Shown: positions 3,324 to 23,630, counted from the first letter of the stretch. The stretch: 64,000 nucleotides of DNA from Bacteroidota bacterium (GCA_012729475.1 JAAYDB010000068.1:23697-87696), one strand, 5' to 3'. Notes: generated from the sequence alone by a model not told the origin. Numbers and translations are program-made.

Positions 3324-3884
3324 TCATAATGGTCCTGCTTTAGCGGCGGTAATACATTTGAAGAGTTCTTTAATAAAAGAAGCAGCTCTTTTGTCAAGGG
3401 CAGACTTATCTACAGGCAAACCGTCTTTATTGAAAAGGTCGTCTACCCTCGGTACCGGAAACATAGCAGGAACAGTCAGGGCTTTCATTTTCCAGAGAGT
3501 AAACTGAAGTGAAGTAATTACCTGTGAACCACCGAAGATACCATCAGATACTGTCGATATTGCTACCGGTTTATGACGCCATTCATCGGTTAACAGATCA
3601 ATGATATTTTTCAGACTGGCCGGATAGCCGCCATTGTATTCAGGAGTTACAATGATTACGCCATCAGCTTCACGTACTTTCTCAGCAAATGTGAGTGTGG
3701 CGGGTGAAGGACTCTCCTGAAAACGAAGTCTTTCATTAAAAAGAGGGAAGTTGTATTTCTTAAGATCAAGTATCTCTGCATCCGAGAGATCATTCTCTAA
3801 GAGATAATTCTCGAAATATGATGCAACAACATGGCTCTTCCTGTTTATTCTTACACTTGATGAGATAATAATTATTTTCAGCAT
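3324..3884 (-). CDS. NAD(P)H-dependent FMN reductase family oxidoreductase
   Basis: 186 aa. Flavodoxin-like N-terminus MLKIIIISSSVRINRKSH and the motif VIIVTPEYNGGYPASLKNIIDLL typical of the NADPH-dependent FMN reductase family. Confidence 0.8.
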   Translation of the reverse strand: MLKIIIISSSVRINRKSHVVASYFENYLLENDLSDAEILDLKKYNFPLFNERLRFQESPSPATLTFAEKVREADGVIIVTPEYNGGYPASLKNIIDLLTDEWRHKPVAISTVSDGIFGGSQVITSLQFTLWKMKALTVPAMFPVPRVDDLFNKDGLPVDKSALDKRAASFIKELFKCITAAKAGPL

Positions 3885-4069: not shown

Positions 4070-5422
4070 ATGAAAGGTAGTGCTGATGATCTGCGGAATG
4101 AAAAGCTGGGTAAGTTACTCCTGAGTTATTCTTTGCCTGCTATCATTGCTACTTCAGCAGCATCATTGTACAATATCACCGACAGGATCTTCATTGGTCA
4201 GGGTGTAGGTCCTCTCGCCATATCGGGTTTGGCTTTAACCTTTCCCCTGATGAATATTACAGCGGCTTTTGGTGCAATGGTTGGTGTTGGTGCCAGTGCT
4301 ATGGTATCTATACGTCTGGGACAACACGACAGGAGAGGGGCAACACAAATTCTCGGTAATGCAGTTATGTTGAATATCATTCTGGGGATCTCCGTAGGTC
4401 TGATTGCTTTGATTTTTCTTGAACCGCTCTTGTATGCCCTCGGAGCAAGTATAGATACATTTCCCTATGCCAGGGAGTATATGCAGGTTGTTCTGGCCGG
4501 CACTGTTTTTACTCATCTTTATCTTGGGATGAATAATATTATGAGGGCATCAGGCTATCCCTCAAAGGCTATGGTTACTACCCTCATTACTGTTGGCGTC
4601 AATCTTATTCTGGATCCGTTTTTTATTTTCTTTCTGGGCTGGGGTATACGTGGTGCAGCCATTGCAACGGTGTTGTCACAGATTGCAGGAACTATCACTG
4701 TAGTAGTACATTTTGTTAAAGGAAAGAGTTTTGTTCACTTTCTGCCAGGTTACATGAAGCTTAAGAAATTGATAATAGGTGATATTATTTCAATTGGAAT
4801 GTCTAATTTCCTTATGCTTATAGCCGGTAGTATAGTTATAACATTAATAAATATCAGTCTTGGCAGATATGGAGGTGATCTGGCTGTAGGTGCTTTCGGT
4901 ATAGTGTACAGTATAACCAATCTTGCTGCAATGGTAGTAGTGGGACTTAACCAGGGGATGCAGCCCATAGTTGGTTATAATTATGGGGCACTGAAAACCG
5001 AACGTGTGCTTAAGGCTTTCAAAATGACAGTGTTTGCTGCCACTGCTGTAACAAGCTTTATGTTTCTGTTTGCTGAGATCTTTCCCGGAATGATAGCAAG
5101 GGCTTTTACAAAAAGTCCCGATCTCATTGGTCTGACAGTACGGGGCATGCGATTAAACCTCATGGTGTTTCCCATTGTAGGATTTCAAATGGTTACATCC
5201 AGTTTCTTCCAGTCTATAGGTAAAGCCAGATTCTCAATATTCCTTTCTCTTACACGGCAGGTCCTCTTCCTGATCCCTGCCCTTCTTATTCTTCCGCGTT
5301 TCATAGGGCTTGATGGTGTCTGGCTGGGGGGACCTGTATCAGATTTTTCATCTTCCCTGCTAACACTTTTTGTTCTTAAATGGCAGATAGGGATACTTAA
5401 AAAAAGACAATTCCCTATATAA
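4070..5422 (+). CDS. MATE family efflux transporter
   Basis: 450 aa, about 12 hydrophobic segments. N-terminal LLLSYSLPAIIATSAASLYNITDRIFIGQGVG and internal GMQPIVGYNYGA motifs are typical of MATE/NorM-like transporters. Confidence 0.9.
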   Translation: MKGSADDLRNEKLGKLLLSYSLPAIIATSAASLYNITDRIFIGQGVGPLAISGLALTFPLMNITAAFGAMVGVGASAMVSIRLGQHDRRGATQILGNAVMLNIILGISVGLIALIFLEPLLYALGASIDTFPYAREYMQVVLAGTVFTHLYLGMNNIMRASGYPSKAMVTTLITVGVNLILDPFFIFFLGWGIRGAAIATVLSQIAGTITVVVHFVKGKSFVHFLPGYMKLKKLIIGDIISIGMSNFLMLIAGSIVITLINISLGRYGGDLAVGAFGIVYSITNLAAMVVVGLNQGMQPIVGYNYGALKTERVLKAFKMTVFAATAVTSFMFLFAEIFPGMIARAFTKSPDLIGLTVRGMRLNLMVFPIVGFQMVTSSFFQSIGKARFSIFLSLTRQVLFLIPALLILPRFIGLDGVWLGGPVSDFSSSLLTLFVLKWQIGILKKRQFPI

Positions 5423-6128
5423 ATTTTTCCCTCCTCTGAAGATTGAATAAGGCAGCTAAAAGGAATAAAACTGAAGCTGTGATAAGAATTATGCGGTTCT
5501 TCAAAGTGATAATTGCCCATGTAGCCTCACTGACCCCATAAGCTGTATTGAATGGATTATGAAACAGGTTCCACTGGCTTTTTAACAAAGGGTCATCAAG
5601 GATCATAAAAAAGAATCCAAAAATAATCATTACCACTGCTGTCCCGTTGCCGTTTCTGATAAGGGTTGAAAACATAAATGACATCATCCCTATAAACAGA
5701 ACTGGTATCATTACATGAACAGTTACAGGGATAATAGGAAAGCGTACAATCAGGACAGAAGAGATAAAAGTGAAGATCAGCATAATAACAAAAGCAATAA
5801 GAAATATCAGAATTATTCTTACCAGCCAAACCTTATATCTGTAATCGGGGATACCGAAAAGTATCTCTATGGTGCGTGCATCCTGATCATTCTGGATTCC
5901 AAAGGTTGAAGGATAAAAGACGAGAAGGATGCCCGAAAAAAGAAATACGCCATAGAGGTCGGACATTTCTGATATGTCGTTCGTGAAAACATATAAGACA
6001 GACAAACCAAGGTAAAAAAATATTGATCCGGCAAGAAACCACATGAATTTATTCGCAAATATGATCCTCAGATTATAGAAGATCATCATCCGGATAAGAA
6101 TAAAAAGGTTAGAGATTTTTTTGATCAT
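5415..6128 (-). CDS. ABC-2-type transporter permease (6 predicted TM), last gene of the hybrid efflux operon
   Basis: 237-aa hydrophobic protein with about 6 helices. It starts 10 nt after the stop of the RND-ABC fusion gene. No ATPase gene of its own, so I infer it pairs with the fused NBD. Confidence 0.6.
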   Translation of the reverse strand: MIKKISNLFILIRMMIFYNLRIIFANKFMWFLAGSIFFYLGLSVLYVFTNDISEMSDLYGVFLFSGILLVFYPSTFGIQNDQDARTIEILFGIPDYRYKVWLVRIILIFLIAFVIMLIFTFISSVLIVRFPIIPVTVHVMIPVLFIGMMSFMFSTLIRNGNGTAVVMIIFGFFFMILDDPLLKSQWNLFHNPFNTAYGVSEATWAIITLKNRIILITASVLFLLAALFNLQRREKFI

Positions 6129-6138
6129 GTTTTTATTA

Positions 6139-9100
6139 TTATGTTCTTCTCAATAGCCAGAGATATGCATCTTCCAGGTTAGGTGTTGCCGCAACAGCTT
6201 CTTCCCATGGCCTGAATTCAGAAATAACACGCACCCTTATTTTTTCTCCTTCCAACATATGGTGTACTACAAGATTTTCCTTAACAAATTTCCCAAAGTC
6301 TTTTTCCGGAATATAAAATTGCCATACATGTCCTTCCGCTTCTTTGATCATATCAACAGGCTTGCCGGTATATCGGAGTTTGCCTTTGTCCATGACTGCA
6401 ATTTTATTACAGGAGCTTGATATGTCTTCAATAATATGGGTTGAAAAAATCACTACCCGCTCACGACTCAGTTCTGCCAGCAGGTTTCGGAATCTGATTC
6501 TTTCTCTTGGATCCAGGCCGGCAGTAGGTTCATCAACAACAAGTATCCTGGGAAGATGCAGAAGGATAAGAGCTATTCCTATTCTCTGTTTCATCCCTCC
6601 TGAATATGAGCCTATCTTTTCATGCCTGCGTTCTTCCATATGAACTGATCTGAGGACATAATTAACCCTTTCTTCACGGGCTTTCAGATCAGTTATATTC
6701 TTTAACATAGCCTGATAATGCAGATATTCATGGGCTGTCATGTTTTCATAACTTCCGAATTCCTGAGGGAGATAGCCAATCAGTCCCTGCAGTTCTTCCC
6801 GCTTTTCCTGAGTATCCAGTCCGTTGATCCATACTTTCCCGTAACTCTGTTCCAGTATGCCGCATATAATTCTCATAAGAGTGGTTTTACCTGCCCCGTT
6901 AGGACCCAGCAAACCAAACATTCCGTTACCAATGTTAAGAGAAATACAGTTAAGTGCCTTGAAAGGTGTTTTCTTTTTGCCGATAATAGGGACAGAAGCA
7001 ACTGCCTTATAGAAAGTTTTTCGCAAACTTTTAAACCTGCCCTGAAGGCGGTTTATATCTGTTTTGTCTCTCGTCAGTCTGTTCCCTGTTTTATATATTA
7101 TAAGGGAGGAATACCATAATAATCCTATAAACAGAACAGTAGCGATATTATTCCATTTTAAGTAGAAAAATATAAGATTACACATTGGGATGATCCAGAT
7201 AACAACAAAACCGGAAATTCTTATGACTGTTTTAATCAGACGGTTTTTCTCTTCTGAATATTTATTTGCAAGAACTTTCCTGACGGAGTTCCATTGTCCT
7301 GACAGAAAGAGCCAGGTAACAATACTGAAAGAAAATATCCAGAAACCTTTCTTAAGATAGAGGTAGGTAAAATATATTATGAAAACAAAAACCGGCAGTT
7401 GCCATAATAAATTTGACAGATCTTTCCAGTCAGTGTATTTGTTATTGTATCCGAGGCGTTCTCTTATCCTGGCACCGGCTTTCCATTCTCTTTGCCATCT
7501 GTTTTCCCTGTCATATATTTTTACCAGACTCTGAATATGGATACTGATTTTTTCATTTTTGGGAATAACAGTTTCTCTGGCTTTTCTCAGACTGTTGAGT
7601 ACAAACCATGTTCCTGATGGAACAACTATCAGGGCAAGGATCGTTGTGATGAGCTGCCATAGAAATTTATCTATTAATCTGTATATAATGAATAATAGCA
7701 ATATAAGTATGATTCCCTGGATGATTTTGTTTTTCCAGGATAGAGATTTAATCCACTCCAGTGAATTTTCAAGACCTGAATAAAATGTTGGAATAAATAC
7801 CAGGGTCAGAAGTGAGCTCATTGCAAGACCTCCTATGACTGTGATGGCGAAAGTAGCACCGACTACCGATACATATTCAGTTTTACCCATTGCAAGAGGA
7901 ATAAGGGCAATGACAGTGGTTGCGGCCGTGATTAGTATCGGCCTTAGCCTTGCCATCCCGGCTATCATGAGTGCCCTTGAACGTCTGTAGCCCCTGTTTC
8001 TTAAAACCCTGGTATAATCGATAAGAATAATACCATTATTAACAACAATACCGAGTAAAATAAGAAAGCCGATCAGGGTGTTCAGGTTAAGCAGGGAATT
8101 ATCTGTCAGAATAAGTGAAATTATTGAACCGAGACCAGCCAGAGGGATACTTAATAGAAGTACGAAAGGAATCCACAATGATTCGAAAACTGCAGCAAGA
8201 ACCATAAAGATAAGGATAAAGGCAATTTTAAGAGGAGAGTAAAAATCCCTGAGGGCATCTTCTTCATGTATCACTTCGACTGCAAGGCTTGTTGAATGAT
8301 TAAGAGCCGCTACAACATTTTCGATTTCTTCTCTTGCGTTTTCAAGCAGCTCTTTCGAATCGTTTATTTCATCTTTAAAAGCATAGGTGACAGTGATCTG
8401 CTTTTCCTGGTTTTCGCGATGAATATTGCCCATTCCATAAGAATAGATTATATCTGCCAGGTCGTCCATGGAGGCTATTGAACCTTCAGAAGAAGATACT
8501 TCAAGGTTTATCAGATCATCTATTGTCTTGTCATTATCATCACTCCTGCCTTCATCATCTTCATATTTGAGTATTATTGAATAGCTGTCGGTTCCGTCAC
8601 TGAATGTAGCTCCTGATGTATATTCACGTCCGAATGTTAAGAGGGCTGCAGAGATATCATTGAGGGAGAAGCCTGAACGGTTTATGTAATCCATATCGAA
8701 ATTAAGATGAACTTCCGGGCTTGCAGACTGGATATTAAGACTGACATTATTTATTGACTGCAGATTATCCAGGGAGGCTTCAATATCTTCTGCCAGTCTG
8801 CGCATATTTTCAAAATCCTGACCTTTAATTATTATCTTTTCATTTTGTGAGCCAAGACCAAGAAGGTTCATGATATTACCTCCCATCTGTTCTTCGGAAT
8901 TTTCTTCTGTGGACATAAAACCTCCACTGGCCGATAGTTCATCAAGATTTACCTCAGCCCCGGTTATATTTTTTGTTTTCTCACTTATATCATTTTTTAT
9001 GCCGGCAAGCTCACGTTTACTGTTTTTATTCCAGTCTTTTGCCAGGTTTATTATGACAGTGGCCCTGTCTTCTTCAATCCTGGAAATAATATCTTTTTGT

Positions 9101-10863
9101 TCAGGTATTTCAGCAAGCCGGTTTTCTATTTGGGTAACAACAGCATCTGTTCCTGAAAGGGTTGATCCGGCTGGCATTGTTACAGAGAGTCTGAAGCTGG
9201 GAGTATCAATCTCACGGGGATTATTCAGGCTTAGGGTAAGGCTTATAAGAAGGGCAGAAAAAAACAATACGAGAGTCCCTATTATAGTAACTGCAGGATG
9301 TCTCATGCTGGCCTTTAGCACAAGACTGTATGCCTGTATCAGTCTGTTGTGAACAGAGAGCTTCTGATAGATTTGCGACTTGCCGTTTTTGCTCTTGGAA
9401 AGGAGGAAATAGGTAGCCATAGGGATGAGGAGCAGAGCTGTAAGAAGGGATATTAACAGAGTAGAAATAATTGATACACTGATATTTCTTATGACCAGTT
9501 TTATGGCAAAGTTTGAAGAAAAAACAAAAGGGAGAAAAATGATGAGTGTAGTTAGTGTTGCAGCAAATATTGATCTCCGTACTTCGGTACTCCCCTGTTT
9601 TACCGCCGTTTCATTGCTAAAACCATCCCCGGCCAGACGGTAAACATTTTCAAGTACCACCACAGAATTGTCAACAAGCATACCTATTGCAAGAGCCATT
9701 CCTACAAGGGTCAGACTGTTGATTGTTATACCTGCAGCATAGAAGAAATTGAACGCAGTATATACAGATACAGGAATTGAGATGGCAATGATTGATACCA
9801 GTCTTAAGTTTCTCAGGAAAAACCAAAGGATCAGTACAGCCAGTAATCCTCCTGCCAGAGCAAGATTAATAATCTCACTGATGTTTTTCTCCATTAATTC
9901 TGCACTGTTGTTCTGAACAACGATCATGACATCCATAGACTTCATTTGGCCGTTCAGTATATCTATTTGTTCAAGAGTTCTGTGGGACAGATCAATCAGA
10001 TTAGCCTGGTTGTCATTTACCAGAGTCATTGTAACGGCATCCATTCCGTTGACACGACTATAAGACTCTTCCTGTCTGACACCAAAAACAATTTGGGCTA
10101 TATCGCGAAGTAGAACAGGGCCCTCCTGCTTAACTGTGATATTCCCGATATCACCTACATCAGTATATTCAGAGCTTATGTTAACAAATAATTCTCTGTC
10201 GATACCTGAAATTTTACCTGCAAAGATTTTTTCCCTGCTATTGTCATTCAGGAGGCCTGCAACCTGATTCATGCTTATTCCGTAAGCTTTACATGCTTTG
10301 CGATCAAGTCTTACCTCTATCGAGTTTTCCTGTCCTCCATATACTTCAACATCAGCTATCCCGTCAATATTCTGCAGTTCAGGACGTATTTCGCGATCCA
10401 CAATATTACGTATCCTGTTAACACCGCCTTCACCCCGTACCTGCAGTTCCATAAACTGATTTGTCAGTTGTCTTATATCAATTTTAACTACATTGATTTG
10501 AAAATTATCAGGTATTGTTGTTTTTACAAGAGCAATTTTCTCCTGCAGTTTCAGGTAGGCATATTTGAGATTTGCTTTTTGATTATAATAAACAGTGATT
10601 ATTCCGTATCTTGATGTAATTGTGGTCTCCAGTTTTTCTATGCCTTCCAGTGTGCCTACCGCACCTTCAACCGGAATAACTGCCTGTTTCTCCATATAGT
10701 CCGGGTCCGTCTCGGTCATGGGAAGTATCTGTACAAAAAGTGCAGGGAACTCTGTATTGGGAAGCAGTTCCACAGGCAGCCTTTTGTATGATACATACCC
10801 CAGCATAGTAAGCCCTGCAAAAAGCATCACGATAAGAATTCTTCTTTTCAGGATAAAGTCCAT
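6139..10863 (-). CDS. RND efflux permease (AcrB-like) fused through extra TM helices to a C-terminal ABC-transporter ATP-binding domain
   Basis: Continuous ORF. The N-terminal roughly 1060 aa are typical RND: [35 protein letters not shown]..., TM4 [16 protein letters not shown], TM10 [14 protein letters not shown]. The C-terminal part has Walker A [12 protein letters not shown] (about 6883..6906), signature YSGGMKQR, Walker B LVVDEPT and H-loop STHI. I prefer ATG 10863 (MDFILKRR) over the track's GTG 10956, which overlaps the upstream gene by 74 nt. Confidence 0.85.
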   Translation of the reverse strand: [1574 protein letters not shown]

Positions 10864-10882: not shown

Positions 10883-13800
10883 TTAACAGTTGAGATTTGT
10901 TTCTTTTCTTTTCCCGGTAATCCAGGCACTGAAACTGTCAAGGAGCCAGTAGACACATGGTATAACCATTAAAGTGAGCAATGTTGATGATAACAAACCT
11001 CCTATAACTGCAAGAGCCATGGGAGATCGTAGTGATGCGCTCTCACCTATACCCAGAGTCAGGGGAAAAAGAGCAAGGATCGTTGTAAGGCTTGTCATGA
11101 TAATAGGTCTGATCCTCTGGGCTCCGGCTGTTACAATAGCTTCTTTACGGCCCATACCGTTATCTCTTAGCTGATTTATCCGGTCAATGAGTATTATGGC
11201 ATTATTCACCGCAATACCACCCAACATTATAATGCCGATGTAAGCCATCATATTGAGGGTCTTATTGAGAAGGAAAAAGGTCAGGATTGTTCCGACACCA
11301 GCCAGAGGTATGGTAAGCATGATAATGAACGGTTGAATGATGGATTCAAACTGTGCCGAAAGGACCATAAAGACCAGTATAAGAGAAAGCATCAGTGCAA
11401 AAGAAAGATTGGACATCGATTCTTTTCTCTTTAGTTCTTCTCCGGTAAATTCCATTTTGTAATCTGCCGGAAGAGATATTCCGCTGACCGCTGTTCGTGC
11501 CTGCCTTATAACTTTATCGAGAGGAAAATCGTCATTTATATCTGCATACAGATAACTGGTTCTGTTCTGATTTCTTCGTGTTATCTCTCTTGGAGAAAGG
11601 ATAATATTTATTTCTGCAAGTTCGCTCAGAGGCACTTTTACATTTCCGGCTGTTATCATCAGATCTTTTAACTGATTAAGAGATATATCCTGCAGTTTTA
11701 TACTAATGTCCTTCATTTCTCCATCTTCCTCGAAGCTTCCTGCAATGGGACCTTCCAGGTAGTTTTTTACCTGGCTGGTTATATTTTCAGCTGTCACATT
11801 ATAATAGCTGGCTTTAAAGCGGTCGATTGCAATCTCAATTTCAGGAAGGCCTTCATCCATAGATGAACTAAAGTTGAAAAGTCCGGGAGAATCGTTAAGC
11901 AGGGAGTCAGCTTCACGTATTATTTTCCCGAGGACAGAGTAATCATTTCCGGCTACCTCAAGGATAAAAGGCGATTCAGTAATTCCCAGAGAAGCCTGTA
12001 ATGCGCTTTCTTCACGGGAAAAACTAACATCAATACCTGGGATTATCCCAAGCTGGCCATCAATAAGGCTAATGATTTTTTCAGATTCAGAAGCGAAATC
12101 TTCCTTAAGTATTACTTTAAGAGAAGCGAAATTTTCTCCTCCGGTTTTTTCATCACTGGCAAAAGAGGACTTTTCGCTTTCTCCTGTCTGGGAATAGATG
12201 GTTTCCAGTGTTTCTCCTGCCATTTCTCTGATGATGTTTTCAACTCTTGTTGCAGTGCTGTAAGTCCGTTCCAGGCTGGTCCCCTGAGGCAGGGTCAGGT
12301 TGACTGTGAATTCAGCAGATTCGGTTTTTGGCATGAACTCACTTCCGAGTGACGGTATTATCAGTGCACATCCTGCAAGCAGTATTAGTGATAGTATTAC
12401 AACCAGACCTCTTTTTTTTATGACTTTCTCAAGGTAATTTTTATACCCCTTGAAATGGACAGAAGAGGAGATACCAATTTTTTTGTTTCTGTCGGAGAAA
12501 ATGGTTGATACCAGCATGGGGATAACAAGCATTGCTACAAAAAAGGAGGAAATAAGTGCAAAGGCAACTGTCCAGGCCTGGTCTTTGAACATTTCTCCTG
12601 ATGGACCCTGCAGGTAAACGATTGGAAGAAATACCACAATGGTTGTTAATGTCGAGGCAGCAATAGCTCCTCCCACCTGGCCGGTCCCGTTTATAACTGC
12701 CTCTCTTAGAGGCATCCCTTCCTCTCTTAGTCTGGTAATGTTTTCCAGTACAACAATAGCATTGTCAACCAACATCCCAGCTCCCAGGGCAAGACCCCCT
12801 AATGTCATTATGTTAAGGGTGAGATTGCTGAAATACATCAGGTTGAATGTGGCAATTATAGAAACAGGGATCGCGATACTTATTACAAGAGTTGTTCCTG
12901 CTCTTCTCAGAAAAATATACAGTACAATTATTGCCAGAATTATACCTGTGATAAGTGTATTTTTAACCTCATTAATAGCATTATGTATATATTTTCCCTG
13001 ATCCTGTATTATGATAAAGTCATATCCGGGCAAAGCTTTTTCAAGATTTTCCAGTTCTTCGATCAGGCTGCCGACTGCATCTACAGTGTTGTATTCCGGC
13101 TCTTTAAATACTGATAATCCGATACATCTTTCGCCGTTGATGGTTACTATATTGTCGGGCTCCTTATTACCCTTTCTGATAATTGCCACGTCTTTAAGGT
13201 AAACAGGGACCCTTGCAGATGCTGATGGAACAGAAGATTCCGCAGACGAAGGAGAAAATTGTGAGGCAGAGGGAACAGGGGCCGCAGATGAAGCAGATGA
13301 CGATGGCTGAATAAAGCCTACAATGATATTTTCAAGATCGTGTATATCGCTAAGCGCTGTTATACCCTTCACGGTATACCGGATACCCATATCCACTATT
13401 GATCCTCCCGAGACATTCCTGTTATATGCACTTATCCGGGTCGCGATGACGTCAGATGTGAGCCCGAATGATTCAAGAAGATAATTATTTGTTTCCACTA
13501 CAATCTCTTCTTCTTCATCTCCGGTAATTGTAATATCGGCTATCCCTTCCAGCCTGACCAGCTCATTACGTATATAATTGACGGCTACCTTACGTAATTC
13601 ATCCATATTACTTATTTTGCTGTTCCTTAATCCTATTATCATTACCGGAGAAGCATTGGGATCGTTTTGCGAGATAGTGAAATCTTCCATATCTGAATTC
13701 TGGGCAAAAGAATTGAGCTCTTTCTGAAGATCGAGAAAAGCTTCATCCATATCCTTTTTCCAGGTATATTCAACAGTAATCAGAGCAGAGCCTGTTCCGG

Positions 13801-14053
13801 AGACGGAAGATACCTGGATCACGTCACTTTGTCGCATGCAAAGGGCTTCAATGAGATCGACATAATTCTTTTCTATTTCCTCAGGAGGTTTTTCTCCGGC
13901 TGACAATTCAATATATATCCGGGGATTGTTAAGATCAGGGAAGAGGTCTGTTCCCAGCCTGCCAAAAGAGATGAATCCCAGAAGACCTATACCCAGAACC
14001 AGCATGAGTACGGTAACCGGGTATTTTACTGCAAATTGAGCAATTTTATTCAT
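10883..14053 (-). CDS. RND efflux permease (AcrB-like), paralogue A
   Basis: 1056 aa. MNKIAQFAVKYPVTVLMLVLGIGLLGFISFGRLGTDLFPDL, TM4 GAGMLVDNAIVVLENI, TM10 GGIAVNNAIILIDR. Twelve-TM plus two periplasmic-loop layout. Starts 5 nt after the adaptor gene. Confidence 0.9.
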   Translation of the reverse strand: MNKIAQFAVKYPVTVLMLVLGIGLLGFISFGRLGTDLFPDLNNPRIYIELSAGEKPPEEIEKNYVDLIEALCMRQSDVIQVSSVSGTGSALITVEYTWKKDMDEAFLDLQKELNSFAQNSDMEDFTISQNDPNASPVMIIGLRNSKISNMDELRKVAVNYIRNELVRLEGIADITITGDEEEEIVVETNNYLLESFGLTSDVIATRISAYNRNVSGGSIVDMGIRYTVKGITALSDIHDLENIIVGFIQPSSSASSAAPVPSASQFSPSSAESSVPSASARVPVYLKDVAIIRKGNKEPDNIVTINGERCIGLSVFKEPEYNTVDAVGSLIEELENLEKALPGYDFIIIQDQGKYIHNAINEVKNTLITGIILAIIVLYIFLRRAGTTLVISIAIPVSIIATFNLMYFSNLTLNIMTLGGLALGAGMLVDNAIVVLENITRLREEGMPLREAVINGTGQVGGAIAASTLTTIVVFLPIVYLQGPSGEMFKDQAWTVAFALISSFFVAMLVIPMLVSTIFSDRNKKIGISSSVHFKGYKNYLEKVIKKRGLVVILSLILLAGCALIIPSLGSEFMPKTESAEFTVNLTLPQGTSLERTYSTATRVENIIREMAGETLETIYSQTGESEKSSFASDEKTGGENFASLKVILKEDFASESEKIISLIDGQLGIIPGIDVSFSREESALQASLGITESPFILEVAGNDYSVLGKIIREADSLLNDSPGLFNFSSSMDEGLPEIEIAIDRFKASYYNVTAENITSQVKNYLEGPIAGSFEEDGEMKDISIKLQDISLNQLKDLMITAGNVKVPLSELAEINIILSPREITRRNQNRTSYLYADINDDFPLDKVIRQARTAVSGISLPADYKMEFTGEELKRKESMSNLSFALMLSLILVFMVLSAQFESIIQPFIIMLTIPLAGVGTILTFFLLNKTLNMMAYIGIIMLGGIAVNNAIILIDRINQLRDNGMGRKEAIVTAGAQRIRPIIMTSLTTILALFPLTLGIGESASLRSPMALAVIGGLLSSTLLTLMVIPCVYWLLDSFSAWITGKRKETNLNC

Positions 14054-14058
14054 GCCTG

Positions 14059-15111
14059 CTACATTACTATTTTCACTTTTGACTTGTTGCTGAGTGTCTC
14101 AAATCCACTGATGACAATACGATCGTTGATAGTCAGGCCCCTTGTGACCTCTATCTCAGTAAGATTCTCAAGCCCCGTTTCCAGAATCCTTTCTTCAGCC
14201 AGCCCTCTGTCAACAATGAAAACAGTTTTGCCTCTTTGCCGCGACAGGATAATATCTTTAGGTATAACTATTACAGAATCTTTCCGGTTAGTGACAATAT
14301 CAGCCTTGACGAACATGCCAGGCCTCAGAAGATAAGAAGAGTTATTAATCTGTATGTTGCCTTTGAATGTTCTTGAATCCGGATCAATTGCAGGTGAGAG
14401 TTGTGCAATCAGGCCTCTGACAGTATCTTCGGGAATGGTATAATTTGTCAGACGTACAGTCTGTCCGGGCCTTACAGATGAGATGTATTTTTCAGGAAGC
14501 TGCACTTCCATATACATCGTCCGATAGTCCATGATTTTTGCTATGGCTGATCCTGTTTCAACCTGTATTCCCTGTGTATAATAAGAAAGATCGACAATGA
14601 CTCCATCGATGGGAGCTACTATCATGGTTTTATCCATTTGCAGCTTTGCATTCTCAACATTCGTCTTTGCATTTTCATATTCTATACTTGCAGCCTTAAG
14701 TTCCTTGAGGGTTACTCCACCTTTTTCATACAGAGATTCCTGTTTCCTTAGCTCACTTTCGGCAAGCTCAAGATTTAACTGATTGGTTTCAAGCTTAACC
14801 GAAAGCTCAAATTCCCTGTCTTCCAGTCTGGCTATTATTGCTCCTGCATTAACTCTGTCACCCATCTGCCAGAGCTTACCCGTTTGAGGGTTTTTTTGAA
14901 GATAATAAGATGCAGCTATTTTGGATTTAAGCTCTGTTTCACCTTTTGGATAGACAGTGCCTGTGGTATTTATAAATTCCTCAATAGAACCCGGGCGTAT
15001 TTCCTGAACAGAGACTGGTATTTCAATGTCAGGAGAAAGGTTTTGATCCTGGTTTCTGCATCCTGTAAGTACAGTAAGCGTAGCTGCAATCAGTATAATT
15101 ATTCTTTTCAT
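14059..15111 (-). CDS. Efflux RND periplasmic adaptor (membrane fusion protein), lipoprotein
   Basis: 350 aa. Lipobox LTGC in MKRIIILIAATLTVLTGCRNQ, a coiled-coil hairpin region (ELSVKLETNQLNLELAESELRKQESLYEKGGVTLKELKAASIEYENAKTNVENAKLQ), then beta-barrel-type sequence typical of HlyD/AcrA-family adaptors. Confidence 0.9.
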   Translation of the reverse strand: MKRIIILIAATLTVLTGCRNQDQNLSPDIEIPVSVQEIRPGSIEEFINTTGTVYPKGETELKSKIAASYYLQKNPQTGKLWQMGDRVNAGAIIARLEDREFELSVKLETNQLNLELAESELRKQESLYEKGGVTLKELKAASIEYENAKTNVENAKLQMDKTMIVAPIDGVIVDLSYYTQGIQVETGSAIAKIMDYRTMYMEVQLPEKYISSVRPGQTVRLTNYTIPEDTVRGLIAQLSPAIDPDSRTFKGNIQINNSSYLLRPGMFVKADIVTNRKDSVIVIPKDIILSRQRGKTVFIVDRGLAEERILETGLENLTEIEVTRGLTINDRIVISGFETLSNKSKVKIVM

Positions 15112-15187: not shown

Positions 15188-16669
15188 TTATAAAGTTTTT
15201 ACCGGAGCGACTGGTTGACTCTTCTCAAAATCATAAAGGGTCTGGATCTTAAGATTCAGCAACTCAAGCTTATATGATATCAGGGCATTGGTATAGGCTA
15301 TTTGTTGTTCAGAGAGTTGGTTCTGAAAAATATTGAGGTCCATTCCTGTAAGATCACCGTTCCTGTATTTTTCCAGATTAAGATCGTAAGTCAGTTGTGC
15401 GTTGACGACATTCTGACGCGCTATCTCTATCTGATTTCGAAGATTGATAAGGTTTCTGCAAACCTGTCTGATGCCGAGGATAATGTTGTTCTGCTCCTCT
15501 TCAAAGGATATTTCTGATGCTTCGATTGATGCTTCTGATGCTTTTATCCTTGATTTTCTTTCTCCCCAGTCCCACAAGGGAATAGTGAGTGAAAGAGAGA
15601 CACTTTCATTATCTGTAGGATTATCATATATATTGGCAATGTTTCTGTTGTCACCAAACAACCCGACTGACAAGTTTAGTTGTCCCCTGAATTCATTAAG
15701 GGCTTTGGTTTGTATCAGGTTGAATTCAGCATTTTCTATATTGATCTGTCTCTGTCGCAATTCCATCCTGTTGGCAAGACCTTTATCAATGGCAAAAGCA
15801 ATATCAACATTAACGGTATCAACTGCAATGTTTGTCAAAACAATAAGATCTTCAAAGAGACTCAACCCTATCAGTATTTTGAATTCATCTTTGGCATTCT
15901 CGAAGGAAACCATACTGTTTTCGTAATTTGATTTAGAAGAAGCAAGATTAAGTTCAGCCTGAAATATTTCTTCGCGTGCCGACAGACCTGCGTCAACTTT
16001 GTTTTTTATAATATCATAACTCTTCTGCATATTCTCATAAGCCTGTTTGTCTATTTCCAGACTCTGTTGTTTCTGATAAACATTATAGAAGTAAATTGAG
16101 ACCTGTTGTTCGAGAGACAGCAGCTGAATGGCATAATTGAGTTGTGCATCTTCAAGTGCCAGTTCCAGTTCTTTTAACTGAAGGCGGGTCCTGTTATATG
16201 TAAAGAGGGGTTGTTCCAGATTCAGTGAAAGGCTGTTGCTGAATCCTGTATTGGTGGTATTTGAATACTCGCTGTAAGAATCAACATACCCGAACTTATT
16301 CATCAGAGATATTCTGGCATCAGTAAGGAGTATGGGTTGTGACACTGTAAAGACACCAAAACTTTCTGTCGTTTTGGTAGTATTCCATGCTGAAATAAGG
16401 TCGTTGAACGACCGGTCCTGACTAAAGCTTAAGGGGTTGACCGATAATGAAAACTGTGATTTCAACGATGCATTTTGTGCATTGAGATTTTCCTGATTTC
16501 TTATCAGATTCAGCCTGGTCTTTTTCATCGTGGGACTGTTTGATTCGGCAACAGCCAAAGATTCTTCAAGAGTCAGTCCTTTTTGTGCGGATATATTTAA
16601 AGAGCATGATAATAAAACTATGGCTGTTATAATAATTCCGCAGGGTTTTTTTACTAAGAATAAATTCAT
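15188..16669 (-). CDS. TolC-family outer membrane efflux protein
   Basis: Signal peptide MNLFLVKKPCGIIITAIVLLSCSLNISAQ followed by LTLEESLAVAESNSPTMKK and two repeated halves rich in coiled-coil heptads, as in OMF/TolC proteins. ATG 16669 preferred over the track's GTG 16744. Confidence 0.85.
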   Translation of the reverse strand: MNLFLVKKPCGIIITAIVLLSCSLNISAQKGLTLEESLAVAESNSPTMKKTRLNLIRNQENLNAQNASLKSQFSLSVNPLSFSQDRSFNDLISAWNTTKTTESFGVFTVSQPILLTDARISLMNKFGYVDSYSEYSNTTNTGFSNSLSLNLEQPLFTYNRTRLQLKELELALEDAQLNYAIQLLSLEQQVSIYFYNVYQKQQSLEIDKQAYENMQKSYDIIKNKVDAGLSAREEIFQAELNLASSKSNYENSMVSFENAKDEFKILIGLSLFEDLIVLTNIAVDTVNVDIAFAIDKGLANRMELRQRQINIENAEFNLIQTKALNEFRGQLNLSVGLFGDNRNIANIYDNPTDNESVSLSLTIPLWDWGERKSRIKASEASIEASEISFEEEQNNIILGIRQVCRNLINLRNQIEIARQNVVNAQLTYDLNLEKYRNGDLTGMDLNIFQNQLSEQQIAYTNALISYKLELLNLKIQTLYDFEKSQPVAPVKTL

Positions 16670-16725
16670 TATTATTTTGTTTGATAATATTAAAGATAAT
16701 AGATGACAGTATCTTTTTTGTGCTG

Positions 16726-19700
16726 TTAAAAATCTTTTACCCACCTGACTGCATCAGCAATAACATATTTTCCTTCTGACATGTTTGTAATCACAACTCT
16801 GGCAGTATCGGAAGACAGGTAATATCTTCCCAGGTTATTCCATCCGCCCCGGGCATTCTGATAATCAAATGTAAGTTCTTCAATGCCTTCATTATGGTAT
16901 ATTTTAAGGTGTATGTCTTTTACTGACTGATCAGCCGGACTTACATCTCCACCTGTTGACACGGGACGAGTTGGCCTTCCCTGACTTTCTCCTGCCGGAC
17001 CACCTGTCCTGTCTCTCCTGATGTCCTGTTCAATTGCTTTTCCGACATAAAAATATATATTGTAATAACCCGGTTCTCTGATGACAGCATTCCATGATGC
17101 TTCCTGAGTGTTATTACCTGATCGTGTATATACAGCGGAAAGGATGTATTTCCCATAGTAATCCGGTTGCACAACAGGTTGCCAGTGTTCGGGTGCATAC
17201 CTTTGATTTATTTGTTGATAGGAAAAAGAATTCTCATTGCTGATCCCTAATATTCTTTTCAGAGGGCTGTTATCTGTTTTTTCATTTACGATAAAACCCG
17301 GATCTTCATTATCAACAATAATCTCAAGCGGATTACTGTAATCAGGGATTGATTCAAGCAGTATTTCTCCTTCGAAAGGCTTCGTCCCGGCAGGAGAATT
17401 ATTAATATTATTTATGTTCCAGACAATTAATCCGGGAATATTTTTGGAGACGAGCGTATTGACCATCATCACTCTGGGTTCTGCATCCAGTGTCAGGCCT
17501 ACTTTTCTGGCTTCTCCCGGCCCTAAAACCACTATTTTTGAAATATTTGAAGCATCAGGAATATTGCTCCCGCCATCATTGCTATTATTACTTCCTCCTT
17601 CAGCAGCCATTAATAAAGGAGCTCCGCCACGCAATCCACTTCTGCCGCCCACAGGACCTGTTCTGAATGATACAGTGAACAGTCCCGCTACAGGTTCAGG
17701 ATTTGATGCAGTGAAAGTGACCTGGTATCTCTGCCTGTTGTCGATAATTATCTGTGACACCTGTAAGCTTGTTATATTAAACGCTGCTTGTTCTTTTGCA
17801 TTAAACCACTCATCAAGAAAGGGATAAAACTCAAAACCGAAATTGTTTTTTATATCCTTGTTAAACTGGTCAGCACTTACACTTCTAAACTGATTATTGT
17901 CAATATATTTTTTAAACCATGTATTGAATTCATCAATACCTGCTTTTGCCCTGAGCAGATTGAAAAGGTAATCACCTTTCAGTGTCAGTATCTTTCTGAT
18001 TGTATCACTTGAAGGGTTTTTTGACAGAATTTCATTTAAACTGTAATTACTGAGGACAAGGTTAGCCTTATCATAATCGCTTAATCCAGGTGTCGAACCA
18101 TAATAACCTGTAGTCTGTGACGGTGGAGTCACTTTTTGCAGATGAGACTCAAACACTGCGTTTATTACCGGGTATTTAAATGAGTAAAAATTATTCCTGA
18201 AGAAATAGAAACTGGGGGACAGTCTGTAACGTACAGGTTCATTTATAGCCACTCCGTCGATGTATCTGAAATTTTCTCCGCTGATAAATGAATTTCTGAT
18301 AAAATCGTTAAATAGTCTGACCTGAAGATCTTTATCGGTTATGATCTGATTATTTCTGGCCATTCTTTTTTTCTGCCTGATCATTTGTTTCCGGAAACCG
18401 GCATTTCTCATGGTTACCAGCTTTTCAGGCAAAAGCACCATTGAGGGCTGTAATTCAGCTCTTGTCTGGGTACTCATCCTGGGATATGAATAGAACTGAA
18501 CAGGAACCTCCAGGAAGCTTAGTGTTTTAAAGGGGTAGGTGGTGGAAAAAGTTGCTTCCAGTTCTCTCATGATACCGGAAACAAGATATGACATTGTGTC
18601 CTTCAGTCCGGAGAGATCATTTTTATAATAATCATTACCTTCGAAATAATGGATGATGTAATTTATAGAATCTACTTCCAGGGTGTCGGAACAATAATTC
18701 CCTATAGCGAGGGTAAGTCCGGTGAGAGGCGATTCAGGACTGTAACAGAAACAGTCACCTTCTTTTTTCATCAGCCCCTGTGAAACAGCTCTTAATCCTT
18801 CAGAAGTATTTACCCGCAGGTGAAAACTGGTGAAATCAACCTTTATCCTGGCGGGATTAGACGGATAGTAGTTTAATCCGGGCACAGGATACCAGTGAGT
18901 CTCAGGGGTCAGAAGAACATATCTTTCTGTGAGAAAAGCCTGTCGTTTGTTGACATTCAGAAATTCTATACTGTAAGGATTGTCATTTATACTGCCTGAA
19001 TAGTCGGGATAACAGAATGCTTCATTTATAGTACCCGAATAGGAAATAGTTATTGAATCAGTTTGTCCGTGATATAATGGTTTTTGGGCTTCCACCTCAG
19101 TGATATGATTCACTGTTCTGTATTTCAACTCAGTATTATTACGGACGATACTGTTGATTTTTAGTCCCGGGTTCAGTGAAAAGAAGTACTTATCTATTGA
19201 ATCGTTATTGTTATTGGTCAAGGAAAGTGTGGCAGTGGCCTGTATGGTTTCCCCTGCATGTAACAGATCAATGGAAGCAGAAGTCAGGGAAAGGGTTTCG
19301 GAATGTTCAAATTCCCTGGCGGCTTCAATAACCATTTTCCTGTCATGGAGTGCTGTTTTATAAAGTGAAACAGTATTTAATCCGCAGATGAATGAACCGG
19401 CAAATGTGAAGATCATCAGGGCAATGCTTACCCCGGTATGGATTTTTGACTGAGGAGGCCTGTTGAAAAGGAGAACAGACGCACAGGCAAGAGAAATACC
19501 CAGCAAACCATACATCAGACGCTGATTGATAATAAGTTCCGGATTATCGAATCCGATAACTCCGGATTTAAACACAGGAAGGCCAAAAGCCATGTAATCG
19601 AAAAAAGACCCAAAACGGTAATAGAGCCAGAACAGATTAAGTGCCGCAATACCCAGGAGGATAAGGAAGGTAAGGGCCTGGTTTCTCAGTATCAGCATTA

Positions 19701-20211
19701 ACAAGAAGGAAAGACCGAGGCTGAAGAGTAAAGTAGGTACACATATTATTATCAGGTATGTGACATAAGACAGCAGATCGACTGTCATGCTTTTCGAAAT
19801 GACATTAATGATCAGTGCTATAAGAAGTATTATTATATCCAGGCCGAGAAACAATTTGAGTATACCCCATGTTTTACCTGTCACATATTCAAGGTTTGAC
19901 ATAGGCCGGGTATAAAGGACCTCATTGGTGTCAATCTTTTTGTCTCTTCTGAGGAAATCAGCTGCGAGAAAGATAACAAGAACTGACTGTGCTATATTAA
20001 GCAGATACAAATTCAGCAGAGGAACGGAAGAGGGGATGGCAACAAGCTCCCATGATTCATCTCCTATAGGGGAGAATAGACCCAGATTCAAGAAAGTGAA
20101 GATAAGCAGGGCTCCTATTGAAAAAAGCCTGAAGAAGAGACTTCTTCTGAGAATTGTTGCTTCGTAGCGGGCAATGGTTTTTATATTGTGAAAAAAGGAT
20201 ATATTGTTCAT
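16726..20211 (-). CDS. ABC-2-like permease (about 7 TM) fused to a roughly 880-aa extracytoplasmic domain of unknown function
   Basis: 1161 aa. The first roughly 280 aa contain about 7 hydrophobic helices. The remainder is hydrophilic, with Gly-rich linkers (GPVGGRSGLRGGAPLLMAAEGGSNNSNDGGSN; TGGPAGESQGRPTRPVSTGG) and a C-terminal module ending ...GGWNNLGRYYLSSDTARVVITNMSEGKYVIADAVRWVKDF. The start ATG overlaps the stop of the upstream ATPase gene by 1 nt. Confidence 0.7.
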   Translation of the reverse strand: MNNISFFHNIKTIARYEATILRRSLFFRLFSIGALLIFTFLNLGLFSPIGDESWELVAIPSSVPLLNLYLLNIAQSVLVIFLAADFLRRDKKIDTNEVLYTRPMSNLEYVTGKTWGILKLFLGLDIIILLIALIINVISKSMTVDLLSYVTYLIIICVPTLLFSLGLSFLLMLILRNQALTFLILLGIAALNLFWLYYRFGSFFDYMAFGLPVFKSGVIGFDNPELIINQRLMYGLLGISLACASVLLFNRPPQSKIHTGVSIALMIFTFAGSFICGLNTVSLYKTALHDRKMVIEAAREFEHSETLSLTSASIDLLHAGETIQATATLSLTNNNNDSIDKYFFSLNPGLKINSIVRNNTELKYRTVNHITEVEAQKPLYHGQTDSITISYSGTINEAFCYPDYSGSINDNPYSIEFLNVNKRQAFLTERYVLLTPETHWYPVPGLNYYPSNPARIKVDFTSFHLRVNTSEGLRAVSQGLMKKEGDCFCYSPESPLTGLTLAIGNYCSDTLEVDSINYIIHYFEGNDYYKNDLSGLKDTMSYLVSGIMRELEATFSTTYPFKTLSFLEVPVQFYSYPRMSTQTRAELQPSMVLLPEKLVTMRNAGFRKQMIRQKKRMARNNQIITDKDLQVRLFNDFIRNSFISGENFRYIDGVAINEPVRYRLSPSFYFFRNNFYSFKYPVINAVFESHLQKVTPPSQTTGYYGSTPGLSDYDKANLVLSNYSLNEILSKNPSSDTIRKILTLKGDYLFNLLRAKAGIDEFNTWFKKYIDNNQFRSVSADQFNKDIKNNFGFEFYPFLDEWFNAKEQAAFNITSLQVSQIIIDNRQRYQVTFTASNPEPVAGLFTVSFRTGPVGGRSGLRGGAPLLMAAEGGSNNSNDGGSNIPDASNISKIVVLGPGEARKVGLTLDAEPRVMMVNTLVSKNIPGLIVWNINNINNSPAGTKPFEGEILLESIPDYSNPLEIIVDNEDPGFIVNEKTDNSPLKRILGISNENSFSYQQINQRYAPEHWQPVVQPDYYGKYILSAVYTRSGNNTQEASWNAVIREPGYYNIYFYVGKAIEQDIRRDRTGGPAGESQGRPTRPVSTGGDVSPADQSVKDIHLKIYHNEGIEELTFDYQNARGGWNNLGRYYLSSDTARVVITNMSEGKYVIADAVRWVKDF

Positions 20212-21104
20212 TACTCGCTTAAATGGGTTTGTAACCTGTGTTCCATGTAATAGACATAAGCATGTTCTATGCCGGGAGTGATAGCCAGTGATTCATATAC
20301 CGGTGTCTTATCTGAAACAATCTGCACATCCCACCCATTTTCTGTAGGTATTGTAGATATAATATCGTATTGATCTTTTGCTTTTTCGTATTCCACAGGT
20401 GAAAGGCTAAGGTTAAATACGTGGCCTTCTGCCTTTTTAATCAGGTTTTCCGGGGGTCCTGAGAAAACCAGTTCTCCTTTGTTAAGGAGTGCCATGCTCT
20501 GGCATGTTGACGAGATATCACCCACAATATGTGTTGAAAGGATTATTGTAACATTGTTTTGTGACAACTGTGAAAGAATGTTTCTGAATCTTATTCTCTC
20601 GTCAGGATCTAGGCCGGTAGTGGGTTCGTCAACAACTATTACAGATGGATTGCCAATAAGAGCCTGGGCTATTCCCAGCCGTCTTTTCATACCTCCTGAC
20701 AGTTTATTGGCCTGTCTGTCGCGGACTTCGAATAATCCAACCTGGTCAAGCAGCCTGTCAACTTCCGACATACGCTTTTTCCTGTTCTTCATTCCTGTCA
20801 GAGAACCTGAATAATCAAGGAATTCCCATGTTTTAAGAGAAGAAAAAAACCTGAAATCCTGGGGCAGATAGCCAAGTATACCGCGTAAGAGCTTTCTGTG
20901 GTACTGAATATCTTTTCCATCAATGAGTATTCTGCCTGAAGAGGGTTTCAGAAGGGTTACCATTATCTTCATCAGGGTTGATTTTCCAGCTCCGTTAGGC
21001 CCCAGTAAACCAAACATACCCCTCCCGAACTTGAGATTTATTTCTTTAAGGGCATGATTGCCATTAGGATATACCTTGCTTAGATTTTCTATTTCAATAA
21101 TCAT
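20211..21104 (-). CDS. ABC transporter ATP-binding protein (ABC-2/DrrA-like), first gene of the operon
   Basis: 297 aa. Walker A [12 protein letters not shown], Q-loop GYLPQD, signature LSGGMKRR, Walker B [10 protein letters not shown], H-loop STHI. Confidence 0.92.
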   Translation of the reverse strand: [297 protein letters not shown]

Positions 21105-23515: not shown

Positions 23516-23630
23516 ATTATATTTTGGGTTTTAAAAGGCGCTACTGTTTATTATTCAATAACAAATTTTAGTTTATTGCTTTATTTTTGTTTTTTTTGTA
23601 CCGGAATTACGGATCAAATTAATCTTATTG

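Follow-up and report, generated by a model that had tools for sequence, protein, structure and literature searches.

Can a permease of the resistance-nodulation-division (RND) family and the ATPase of an ATP-binding cassette (ABC) transporter be parts of one and the same polypeptide and, in that case, what kind of transport system might the two build together? This question is raised by a stretch of 64,000 nucleotides from a Bacteroidota bacterium (GCA_012729475.1, JAAYDB010000068.1:23697-87696), hereafter the window, whose minus strand carries at positions 6139 to 10863 a gene, here called RND2::ABC, that joins the two modules in a single reading frame. An earlier note on this DNA, generated from the sequence alone, had described the gene as a true fusion and not as an accidental read-through. 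The comparative analysis reported here shows that the gene fusion is genuine, anciently fixed and of single origin.

Structure of the fusion gene

The frame runs without a break from the ATG at 10863 to the TAA at 6139-6141 and encodes 1574 amino acids (six-frame list of open reading frames, ORFs), as the earlier note had read it; an alternative in-frame GTG start at 10956 would lead to a protein of 1605 amino acids. The same note had assigned residues 1 to about 1030 to an RND permease and the C-terminal part to an ABC nucleotide-binding domain (NBD), and both assignments were borne out by the profile searches: Pfam ACR_tran covers residues 2-1029 over nearly its full length (positions 3-1018 of the 1021 in the profile, E 1.1e-159), and residues 1307-1448 match ABC_tran (E 5e-27). 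The ABC motifs were all located where the note had placed them, and a D-loop (AGLD) is also present; judged from these motifs the C-terminal ATPase domain is catalytically intact, and within the ABC-2 class, to which it belongs, GldA, DrrA and NosF come closest to it. The parts of the gene, all on the minus strand, are listed below with the evidence on which each was placed.

6139..10863, minus strand: RND2::ABC fusion gene, 1574 amino acids (ORF; Pfam ACR_tran and ABC_tran both in the chain; orthologous frames; GenBank protein)
7771..10863, minus strand: RND permease moiety, residues 1-1031, with 12 transmembrane (TM) helices and periplasmic porter/docking domains (ACR_tran, ZneA alignment, invariant motifs)
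7594..7725, minus strand: TM13-TM14 hairpin, residues 1047-1090 (hydropathy, alignments, positive-inside statistics)
7513..7548, minus strand: displaced beta-1 strand of the NBD with the A-loop Tyr, ISIHIQSLVKIY, residues 1106-1117 (motif, position-specific scoring matrix (PSSM), start of the alignment, AlphaFold2 (AF2) model with DSSP)
7093..7410, minus strand: TM15-TM18, four-helix membrane insertion in the NBD, residues 1152-1257 (hydropathy, AF2, linker search)
6334..6966, minus strand: NBD core from beta-2 on, residues 1300-1510 (ABC_tran, motifs, identity to the standalone ATPase of the operon, ATPase297, structural matches)
6883-6906, minus strand: Walker A, GPNGAGKT (motif)
6760-6777, minus strand: Q-loop, GYLPQE (motif)
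6583-6606, minus strand: signature, YSGGMKQR (motif)
6526-6546, minus strand: Walker B, ILVVDEP, with the catalytic Glu E1445 (motif)
6430-6444, minus strand: H-loop, STHII (motif)
6142..6333, minus strand: C-terminal accessory domain of the ATPase, residues 1511-1574, common to ATPase297 (the alignment reaches both C-termini)

Distribution and origin of the fusion

The window protein is itself a GenBank entry (NLV18956.1), and its cluster at 90% identity holds a full-length copy of 1574 amino acids, found on 33 contigs, the longest of 244 kb. The earlier note had proposed that databases be searched for single chains matching both PF00873 and PF00005: with residues 1000-1574 as query, well over 100 such proteins were found, at identities down to about 53%. 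Among the matches listed for this query, every protein is shorter than 1000 amino acids; many of these short matches lie on short contigs, and the long contigs come from long-read assemblies in which the RND genes are frameshifted. A shorter natural form of the fusion was ruled out, the matches below 1000 amino acids being contig-truncated or frameshift-broken genes. It may be added that in three long-read contigs of metagenome-assembled genomes (MAGs; L001, L002 and L034) both the fused RND gene and the unfused one next to it (RND1) are broken into several frameshifted pieces, giving rise to spurious database proteins of about 900 amino acids that look like an RND fragment joined to an ABC domain.

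A scan of one genome per GTDB species, in which the fusion junction, the linker between the two modules and the NBD were all matched, recovered 35 loci. They include those of the isolates Prolixibacter bellariivorans ATCC BAA-1284, Draconibacterium mangrovi, Maribellus maritimus, Parabacteroides massiliensis, Bacteroides sp. 224 and Marivirga sericea DSM 4125, that of the complete Marivirga tractuosa chromosome, and those of Calditrichaceae and Latescibacterota MAGs. The frame is open over 1565-1616 codons in 30 of the 31 loci that are not cut by a contig end, the sole exception being a frameshifted long-read MAG; the scenario in which the homologues are always encoded as two genes, which the earlier note had named as fatal to the idea of a fusion, is thus contradicted. 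(The alignment, motif and charge statistics given below refer to an orthologue set of 31 sequences.) In addition, the genes had been called independently as single ones, of 1570 and 1577 amino acids and with both ACR_tran and ABC_tran, on a Gemmatimonadota (L083) and an Acidobacteriota (L084) contig. The fusion is therefore conserved in at least five phyla, namely Bacteroidota, Calditrichota, Latescibacterota, Gemmatimonadota and Acidobacteriota. Two fusion homologues lie in MAGs labelled Spirochaetales (P0062) and Eubacteriales (L024), that is, in phyla otherwise without the system, for which mis-binning or horizontal transfer is possible.

That the fusion arose only once follows from two observations. 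The 31 fused NBDs group as a single clade, not interrupted by any other sequence, in a neighbour-joining tree built from NBD cores. Moreover, the linker is confined to proteins of about 1550-1585 amino acids: when it was compared on its own with 1.84 billion representative proteins, 96 clusters matched, all consisting of RND-fused proteins and their fragments; in every full-length match (1550-1585 amino acids) it lies at about 1030-1295, and the matches of intermediate length are fragments that begin within TM10-12 of the RND part or within TM13. Neither a standalone protein of linker and NBD nor any other unfused form was found in this set. That the long ORF might be an artefact of sequencing or assembly, i.e., a lost stop or a chimeric RND-ABC join, could have been suspected in a window from a metagenome-type assembly with frameshifted long-read relatives, but is effectively excluded by the exact protein in GenBank and the full-length copy in its cluster, by the same open frame in the complete loci of isolates and of a whole chromosome, and by the fact that the long-read frameshifts disrupt the gene and do not make it.

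The RND moiety

The RND2 moiety aligns end to end with ZneA (4k0e), and MdtB (9lyq) is also among the best matches of solved structure. Eleven segments exceed the hydropathy threshold, and TM9, which stays below it, is aligned with the homologous ZneA helix; the moiety thus has the 12-TM, 1+5/1+5 layout of the RND family. Asp398 in TM4 (LVD398N), the VVNNG motif in TM10 and R-x-R-P-I-x-I-T in TM11 are invariant in 31/31 orthologues, and the position of the second TM4 Asp is mostly Asn throughout the set. With respect to what we take to be the AcrB motifs, both this position and that of the TM10 Lys are Asn in RND2. The same TM4 VDN and TM10 VNN motifs occur in RND1, which is unfused, and hence the signature is not caused by the fusion.

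Both halves of the protein look functional, since the TM4, TM10 and TM11 signatures are invariant, the ABC motifs are intact, and conservation along the chain is highest in the NBD core (on average, a per-column identity of 0.77 to the window protein). Trimeric assembly and transport driven by the proton-motive force (PMF) are putative properties of the RND moiety, as ATP hydrolysis and dimerization are predicted ones of the fused NBD.

The membrane linker and the split ATPase domain

The earlier note had counted two additional helices after the RND part and had argued that an even number (12 + 2) returns the chain to the cytoplasm, where an NBD has to sit. Hydropathy gives six, arranged as three hairpins with periplasmic turns of 4 residues; with 12 + 6 again an even number the parity argument holds, whereas the count does not. 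An 18-TM topology with the C-terminus inside fits the data, because the positive-inside charge pattern agrees with it: the mean number of Lys and Arg is 2.6, 14.6, 3.7 and 11.4 in the segments assigned to the cytoplasm, against 0.2, 0.6 and 0.9 in the periplasmic turns. The three hairpins TM13-18 keep the chain in the inner membrane and bring the ATPase domain to its cytoplasmic face.

Conservation is lowest in the linker (mean column identity 0.33-0.46; 20-61% identity by tblastn), which retains invariant residues and a fixed six-helix layout across the orthologues. AF2 modelled TM15-18 as a four-helix bundle, with a predicted local distance difference test (pLDDT) of 73-86. The idea that the six extra helices are a cryptic ABC transmembrane domain (TMD) was discarded, as hhalign gave probabilities of at most 0.3% against the profiles of the neighbouring permease Perm237 and of the two TMDs (TMD1 and TMD2) of the related permeases described below. 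A weak profile similarity exists between TM13-14 (7594-7725) and TM15-16 (about 7266-7428; hhalign E 1.4e-5 over 35 columns), which could reflect either duplication of a hairpin or compositional bias of TM segments.

Between the first and the second hairpin lies ISIHIQSLVKIY, which follows the pattern I-x-I-x-x-L-x-K-[IV]-Y in 31/31 orthologues, those from Latescibacterota included. It contains the only candidate A-loop, LVKIY (Tyr1117), 203 residues upstream of Walker A and with four TM helices in between. In the closest standalone ATPases the N-terminus reads M-x-L-x-I-x-N-L-[ST]-K-x-Y, that is, a canonical beta-1 strand and A-loop aromatic residue, 20-25 residues before Walker A; when a PSSM of 10 columns, built from 23 of these N-termini, was run along the fusions (about 1565 positions), LVKIY came out as the best site in 23/31 and as the second or third best in 5 more. 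Furthermore, ATPase297 and the fused NBD are 43% identical over 270 residues, through both C-termini, in an alignment that opens at residue 18 of ATPase297, just past its beta-1 strand and A-loop. Finally, the AF2 model of linker and NBD (13 sequences; overall poor, pLDDT 64.5) has, according to DSSP, a strand of 10 residues at the same place, at low pLDDT.

Since motif, PSSM, ATPase297 alignment and AF2 all speak for LVKIY as the end of beta-1 with the A-loop, the four helices TM15-18 are a membrane insertion of about 180 residues in the beta1-beta2 loop, by which the NBD is split. The fused domain departs in this from a contiguous NBD, whose A-loop lies about 25 residues before Walker A, and represents a split variant. 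The beta1-beta2 loop is known to tolerate insertions, and it hosts the regulatory insertion of CFTR NBD1. The NBD had been delimited in the earlier note as 7548..6139: its start does coincide with a real NBD element, whereas the domain is not continuous, being interrupted by TM15-18 before about residue 1300.

Concerning its affiliation, the structural matches of the fused NBD are TM_1403, ABCA4/7 and NosF, and the best NCBIfam models for both this domain and ATPase297 are GldA and DrrA, with both ATPases below the curated cut-offs. Membership in the GldA family proper (TIGR03522) was rejected, as the fused NBD scores 175 bits and ATPase297 scores 188 against a cut-off of 402.6.

The operon and its conservation

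RND2::ABC is the sixth of seven genes in the order ATPase297, Perm1161, OMF (outer membrane factor), MFP (membrane fusion protein), RND1, RND2::ABC, Perm237, all on the minus strand and with gaps of -19 to 76 nucleotides. This setting, with its second RND paralogue, second ATPase and second single-TMD permease, had been overlooked in the earlier note. Besides the fusion, the operon consists of the following genes.

20211..21104, minus strand: ATPase297, standalone ABC ATPase, first gene of the operon and paralogue of the fused NBD (Pfam ABC_tran, NCBIfam)
16726..20211, minus strand: Perm1161, a single ABC-2-like TMD (about 7 TM) with a predicted periplasmic domain of about 880 amino acids (Pfam, TM map, alignments, synteny)
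15188..16744, minus strand: TolC-family OMF (Pfam OEP E 4e-49, TIGR01844)
14059..15111, minus strand: MFP, periplasmic adaptor (TIGR01730 RND_mfp E 1e-56, synteny)
10883..14053, minus strand: RND1, unfused RND paralogue, 1056 amino acids (Pfam, NCBIfam, pairwise comparison)
5415..6128, minus strand: Perm237, 237 amino acids, predicted six-TM ABC-2 (type V) permease (adjacency, Pfam of orthologues, AF2, fold matches)

The order Perm1161-OMF-MFP-RND1-fusion-Perm237 was found in 37/37 related loci as far as the contigs reach, exceptions concerning the OMF apart: this gene is syntenic in Bacteroidota and Calditrichaceae and is absent from the operon of the Latescibacterota (L036), Gemmatimonadota (L083) and Acidobacteriota (L084) representatives. 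The order from ATPase297 through Perm1161, OMF, MFP and RND1 to the start of the fusion was found in 24/24 long metagenome loci, again as far as the contigs reach. In every locus RND1 and RND2 are adjacent after one MFP gene, RND1 always immediately upstream of the fusion; they are 26% identical, and by this comparison they are ancient paralogues. The ABC motifs are all intact in ATPase297 too. The N-terminus of the MFP resembles a lipoprotein signal (LTGC), and the true start of the OMF is probably downstream of the listed GTG. Residues 251-286 of RND1 (13196-13303, minus strand), in its periplasmic part, form a low-complexity insert rich in Ser, Ala and Pro, SSSASSAAPVPSASQFSPSSAESSVPSASARV, which does not occur in RND2 and divides the Pfam match of RND1 into two stretches.

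Two permeases and two ATPases

The Perm237 ORF begins 10 nucleotides past the stop of the fusion, and in all related loci whose sequence extends that far Perm237 is the next gene after the fusion. Pfam and NCBIfam gave no match to the window's Perm237 even at E = 1. Its orthologues in the Latescibacterota clade carry PF12698/PF12679, and the JGI name is that of NosY-type permeases. The AF2 model of Perm237 (42 sequences; pLDDT 83, predicted TM-score 0.81) has type-V TMDs as all of its top fold matches (about 30) in the PDB, with NosY as the best and PmtD, ABCG2/5/8/25 and ABCA among the others; TM-scores reach 0.64 at a Foldseek probability of about 1.0, with weak E-values of 0.04-1. Perm237 is thus a type-V TMD and presumably the cognate of the fused NBD, as had been proposed when this ABC-2-like permease was first called the obvious partner, and we infer a physical complex between the two from the invariant adjacency of their genes.

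The second permease, Perm1161, gave weak matches to ABC2_membrane and Peptidase_M1, and a Golvesin_C match. Its architecture can be read by comparison with the nearest standalone ATPases (41-47% identity), each of which precedes one permease of about 1200 amino acids and 12-13 TM, made up of TMD1, TMD2 and a soluble M1-peptidase-like domain. Perm1161 aligns to TMD2 and the soluble part of these two-TMD permeases (BLAST E 4e-11; hhalign 95%). Perm237 was compared with both of their TMD profiles by hhalign (TMD1, E 1.3e-4 and probability 54%; TMD2, E 0.025), a result that is suggestive only of Perm237 being the counterpart of TMD1.

A role of Perm1161 as a catalytic M1 aminopeptidase was rejected, given that it has neither an HExxH nor a GxMEN motif. 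The periplasmic domain is probably a non-catalytic domain for binding or handing over a substrate. Among the standalone permeases of about 1200 amino acids with two TMDs, 9/12 retain HE[MV][AG]H near residues 935-955 (the loci noted for this site are L043, L047, L048, L053, L057, L059, L070, L071 and L081). The pairing of an ABC ATPase with a double ABC-2 TMD and an M1 peptidase is itself a widespread and apparently uncharacterized family.

A composite exporter?

What, then, might the seven genes encode? The reading that we favour, to which we give about equal weight for and against, is that of one composite exporter, in which an ABC-2 exporter is tethered to a two-paralogue RND tripartite pump and the substrate is relayed outward. 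The first module would be a type-V ABC exporter having ATPase297 and the fused NBD as its NBDs and Perm1161 and Perm237 as its TMDs; Perm1161 would correspond to TMD2 and the periplasmic domain of an ancestral two-TMD permease, and Perm237 to the other TMD, detached from it. That these proteins would form one heterodimeric ABC-2 transporter is suggested by the operon having exactly two NBDs and two single TMDs, versus the one ATPase and the one double-TMD permease of the ancestral arrangement. The second module would be a tripartite RND pump of RND1/RND2, MFP and OMF, the RND part of which would probably be a heterotrimer as in MdtB2C. RND heterotrimers such as MdtB2C are known, and an RND1:RND2 ratio of 2:1, as in that case, would give exactly one fused NBD. 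The covalent tether would hold the ABC module at the RND trimer. Powered by ATP hydrolysis, the ABC module would bring the substrate from the cytoplasm or the inner leaflet to the periplasmic face, and the PMF-driven RND module would take it up there and export it via the MFP/OMF duct. The substrate would most likely be an amphiphilic small molecule, a lipid or a peptide.

Several points weigh against this reading. The link between Perm237 and TMD1 is weak, with an hhalign probability hardly above one half, and the AF2 model of linker and NBD is poor, so that the presumed pairing of beta-1 with beta-2 is drawn from sequence tests. The stoichiometry of the RND trimer and the pairing of the NBDs are purely conjectural, and two fused NBDs contributed by two RND2 protomers could equally dimerize. 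The TM10 Lys is replaced by Asn in both RND paralogues, and proton coupling, although likely, may not proceed via the AcrB relay. As for the operon, the 24 loci with ATPase297 are those of close relatives only (76-81% identity), and in the Acidobacteriota locus (L084) the neighbouring ATPase gene is divergent and no large permease occurs upstream of the MFP in the stretch covered.

A further step, which we propose only tentatively and regard as somewhat doubtful, is that the system might be a dual-energized device, in which an ATP-driven type-V exporter and a proton-driven heteromeric RND pump work in series from the cytoplasm or inner leaflet to beyond the outer membrane, and in which the split NBD mechanically ties nucleotide binding to helices packed on the RND domain, which would allow ATP turnover to be coordinated with the cycling of the RND part.

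The same genes might instead be wired as two separate ABC transporters, one formed by the fused NBDs of two RND2 protomers (in a trimer with one RND1) over a Perm237 homodimer, and the other, independent of it, by two copies each of ATPase297 and Perm1161. Each ATPase gene does directly precede a permease gene, as is usual where an NBD and a TMD belong together; NosFY, PmtCD and other type-V exporters are as a rule homodimers, and both NBDs are fully consensus, without the degeneracy typical of obligate heterodimers. We nevertheless consider this arrangement unlikely, if far from negligible, in view of the fact that the large permease has lost one TMD with respect to its standalone relatives, a loss most simply made up by Perm237, and that all seven genes travel together across phyla.

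A simpler view of the tether would be that it merely co-localizes or co-regulates independent transporters, with no hand-over of substrate and no energetic coupling. The low conservation of the linker would agree with this, as would the lack of any motif pointing to allosteric communication. A single origin followed by retention across at least five phyla, invariant residues and a constant helix layout within that very linker, and the failure to find an unfused form among the representative proteins speak against co-localization alone, which we hold to be improbable.

Even less probable, in our opinion, is that the NBD drives or gates the RND permease directly, TM13-18 transmitting its movement and Perm237 being an accessory. 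It is true that membrane helices able to pack on the RND part connect the NBD covalently with its TM12, and that the AcrB-type TM10 Lys is missing; yet the TM4 Asp and the TM11 Arg are still invariant, RND1 has the same TM4/TM10 signature with no NBD attached, and a dedicated type-V TMD partner is always present. Moreover, the RND fold is not known to provide the dimer partner and the coupling helices on which an ABC NBD depends.

Relationship to known transport systems

The composite exporter that we favour shares features with several known systems. MdtABC-TolC and MuxABC-OpmB also have two divergent tandem full-length RND genes after one MFP, together with an OMF, and by analogy RND1 and RND2 probably form a heterotrimer; here, however, the second paralogue adds six TM helices and an ABC ATPase, the two paralogues share 26% identity, the AcrB-type TM10 Lys is Asn in both, and the operon comprises two ABC-2 permeases and a second ATPase. 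Orthology with MdtB/MdtC was rejected, RND2 scoring 263/242 bits and RND1 357/359 bits against NCBIfam cut-offs of 1584/1774.

With the type-V exporters NosDFY, PmtCD, DrrAB, GldAFG and ABCG/ABCA the system has in common the class of the NBD and the six-TM fold of Perm237, and with NosDFY also a large periplasmic domain beside a TMD (here on Perm1161). We know of no member of the type-V family in which the NBD is fused to another transporter or split by TM helices between beta-1 and beta-2.

MacAB-TolC and the DevBCA-type pumps likewise have an ABC ATPase, an MFP and a TolC-family OMF in their operon. MacB is a type-VII ABC protein, with an N-terminal NBD, four TM helices and a periplasmic domain, and docks the MFP itself; in the present operon a complete RND permease is available for the MFP-docking role and the ABC part is of the ABC-2 class. 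Membership in the MacB type was excluded, no FtsX/MacB domain being found in any protein of the operon and the inserted helices having very short periplasmic turns.

Both operon ATPases have their nearest relatives (42-43% identity) in the standalone pairs of an ATPase and a two-TMD/M1 permease of Flavobacteriia, Sphingobacteriia and others (L043, L047, L062 and L071 among them), in which Perm1161 finds the homologues of its TMD and soluble domain. These pairs differ from our operon in consisting of one ATPase and one permease of about 1200 amino acids and 12-13 TM, with no adjoining RND, MFP or OMF gene, and most of them keep the HExxH motif lost in Perm1161.

In two-step efflux, single-component inner-membrane pumps cooperate with RND pumps, the partners being separate, unlinked proteins. 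The logic would be alike, one transporter emptying the cytoplasm or inner leaflet while the periplasm is cleared by the RND pump; here the two would be united in one polypeptide and one operon. If the modules do cooperate, this would be the first hard-wired case of two-step efflux, and the hand-over could be tested directly by solving structures and mutating single residues. The textbook scheme assigns one inner-membrane engine, be it ABC, RND or major facilitator superfamily (MFS), to each tripartite system, whereas here a primary and a secondary transporter are found in one polypeptide. The split of the NBD by TM helices is likewise an unusual natural variant of a much-studied fold. Cultured carriers such as Marivirga tractuosa, Marivirga sericea, Prolixibacter bellariivorans, Draconibacterium mangrovi, Maribellus maritimus and Parabacteroides massiliensis make experiments feasible.

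The suggestion that this architecture had not been described agrees with what we found: full-text literature searches returned no description of an RND-ABC fusion, and the portions at hand of a 2021 Chemical Reviews survey of tripartite systems (PMC8277102) deal with ABC, RND and MFS engines and the MdtBC heterotrimer only, with no RND-ABC fusion. In databases the fusion proteins appear as "ATP-binding cassette domain-containing protein", "efflux RND transporter permease subunit" or, at JGI, "AcrB/ABC-type multidrug transport system ATPase subunit". Hence, known parts are found in a conserved arrangement that is so far undescribed, its database entries carrying only inconsistent automatic names.

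Transcription signals and neighbouring genes

The terminator scan of the operon gave no clear intergenic terminator, and the scan for sigma-70 promoters (63 sites against 44.5 expected) was uninformative, its consensus being unsuited to Bacteroidota. Past the head of the operon and beyond a divergent HD-domain gene (21167-22465, plus strand) lie an LpxD gene and an LpxC-FabZ fusion gene (22478-25028, plus strand). At the other end a MATE-family efflux gene (4070-5422, plus strand) converges on Perm237, with a gene for an NADPH-dependent FMN reductase (3324-3884, minus strand) beyond it; both are probably incidental neighbours, since the genes downstream vary in other loci.

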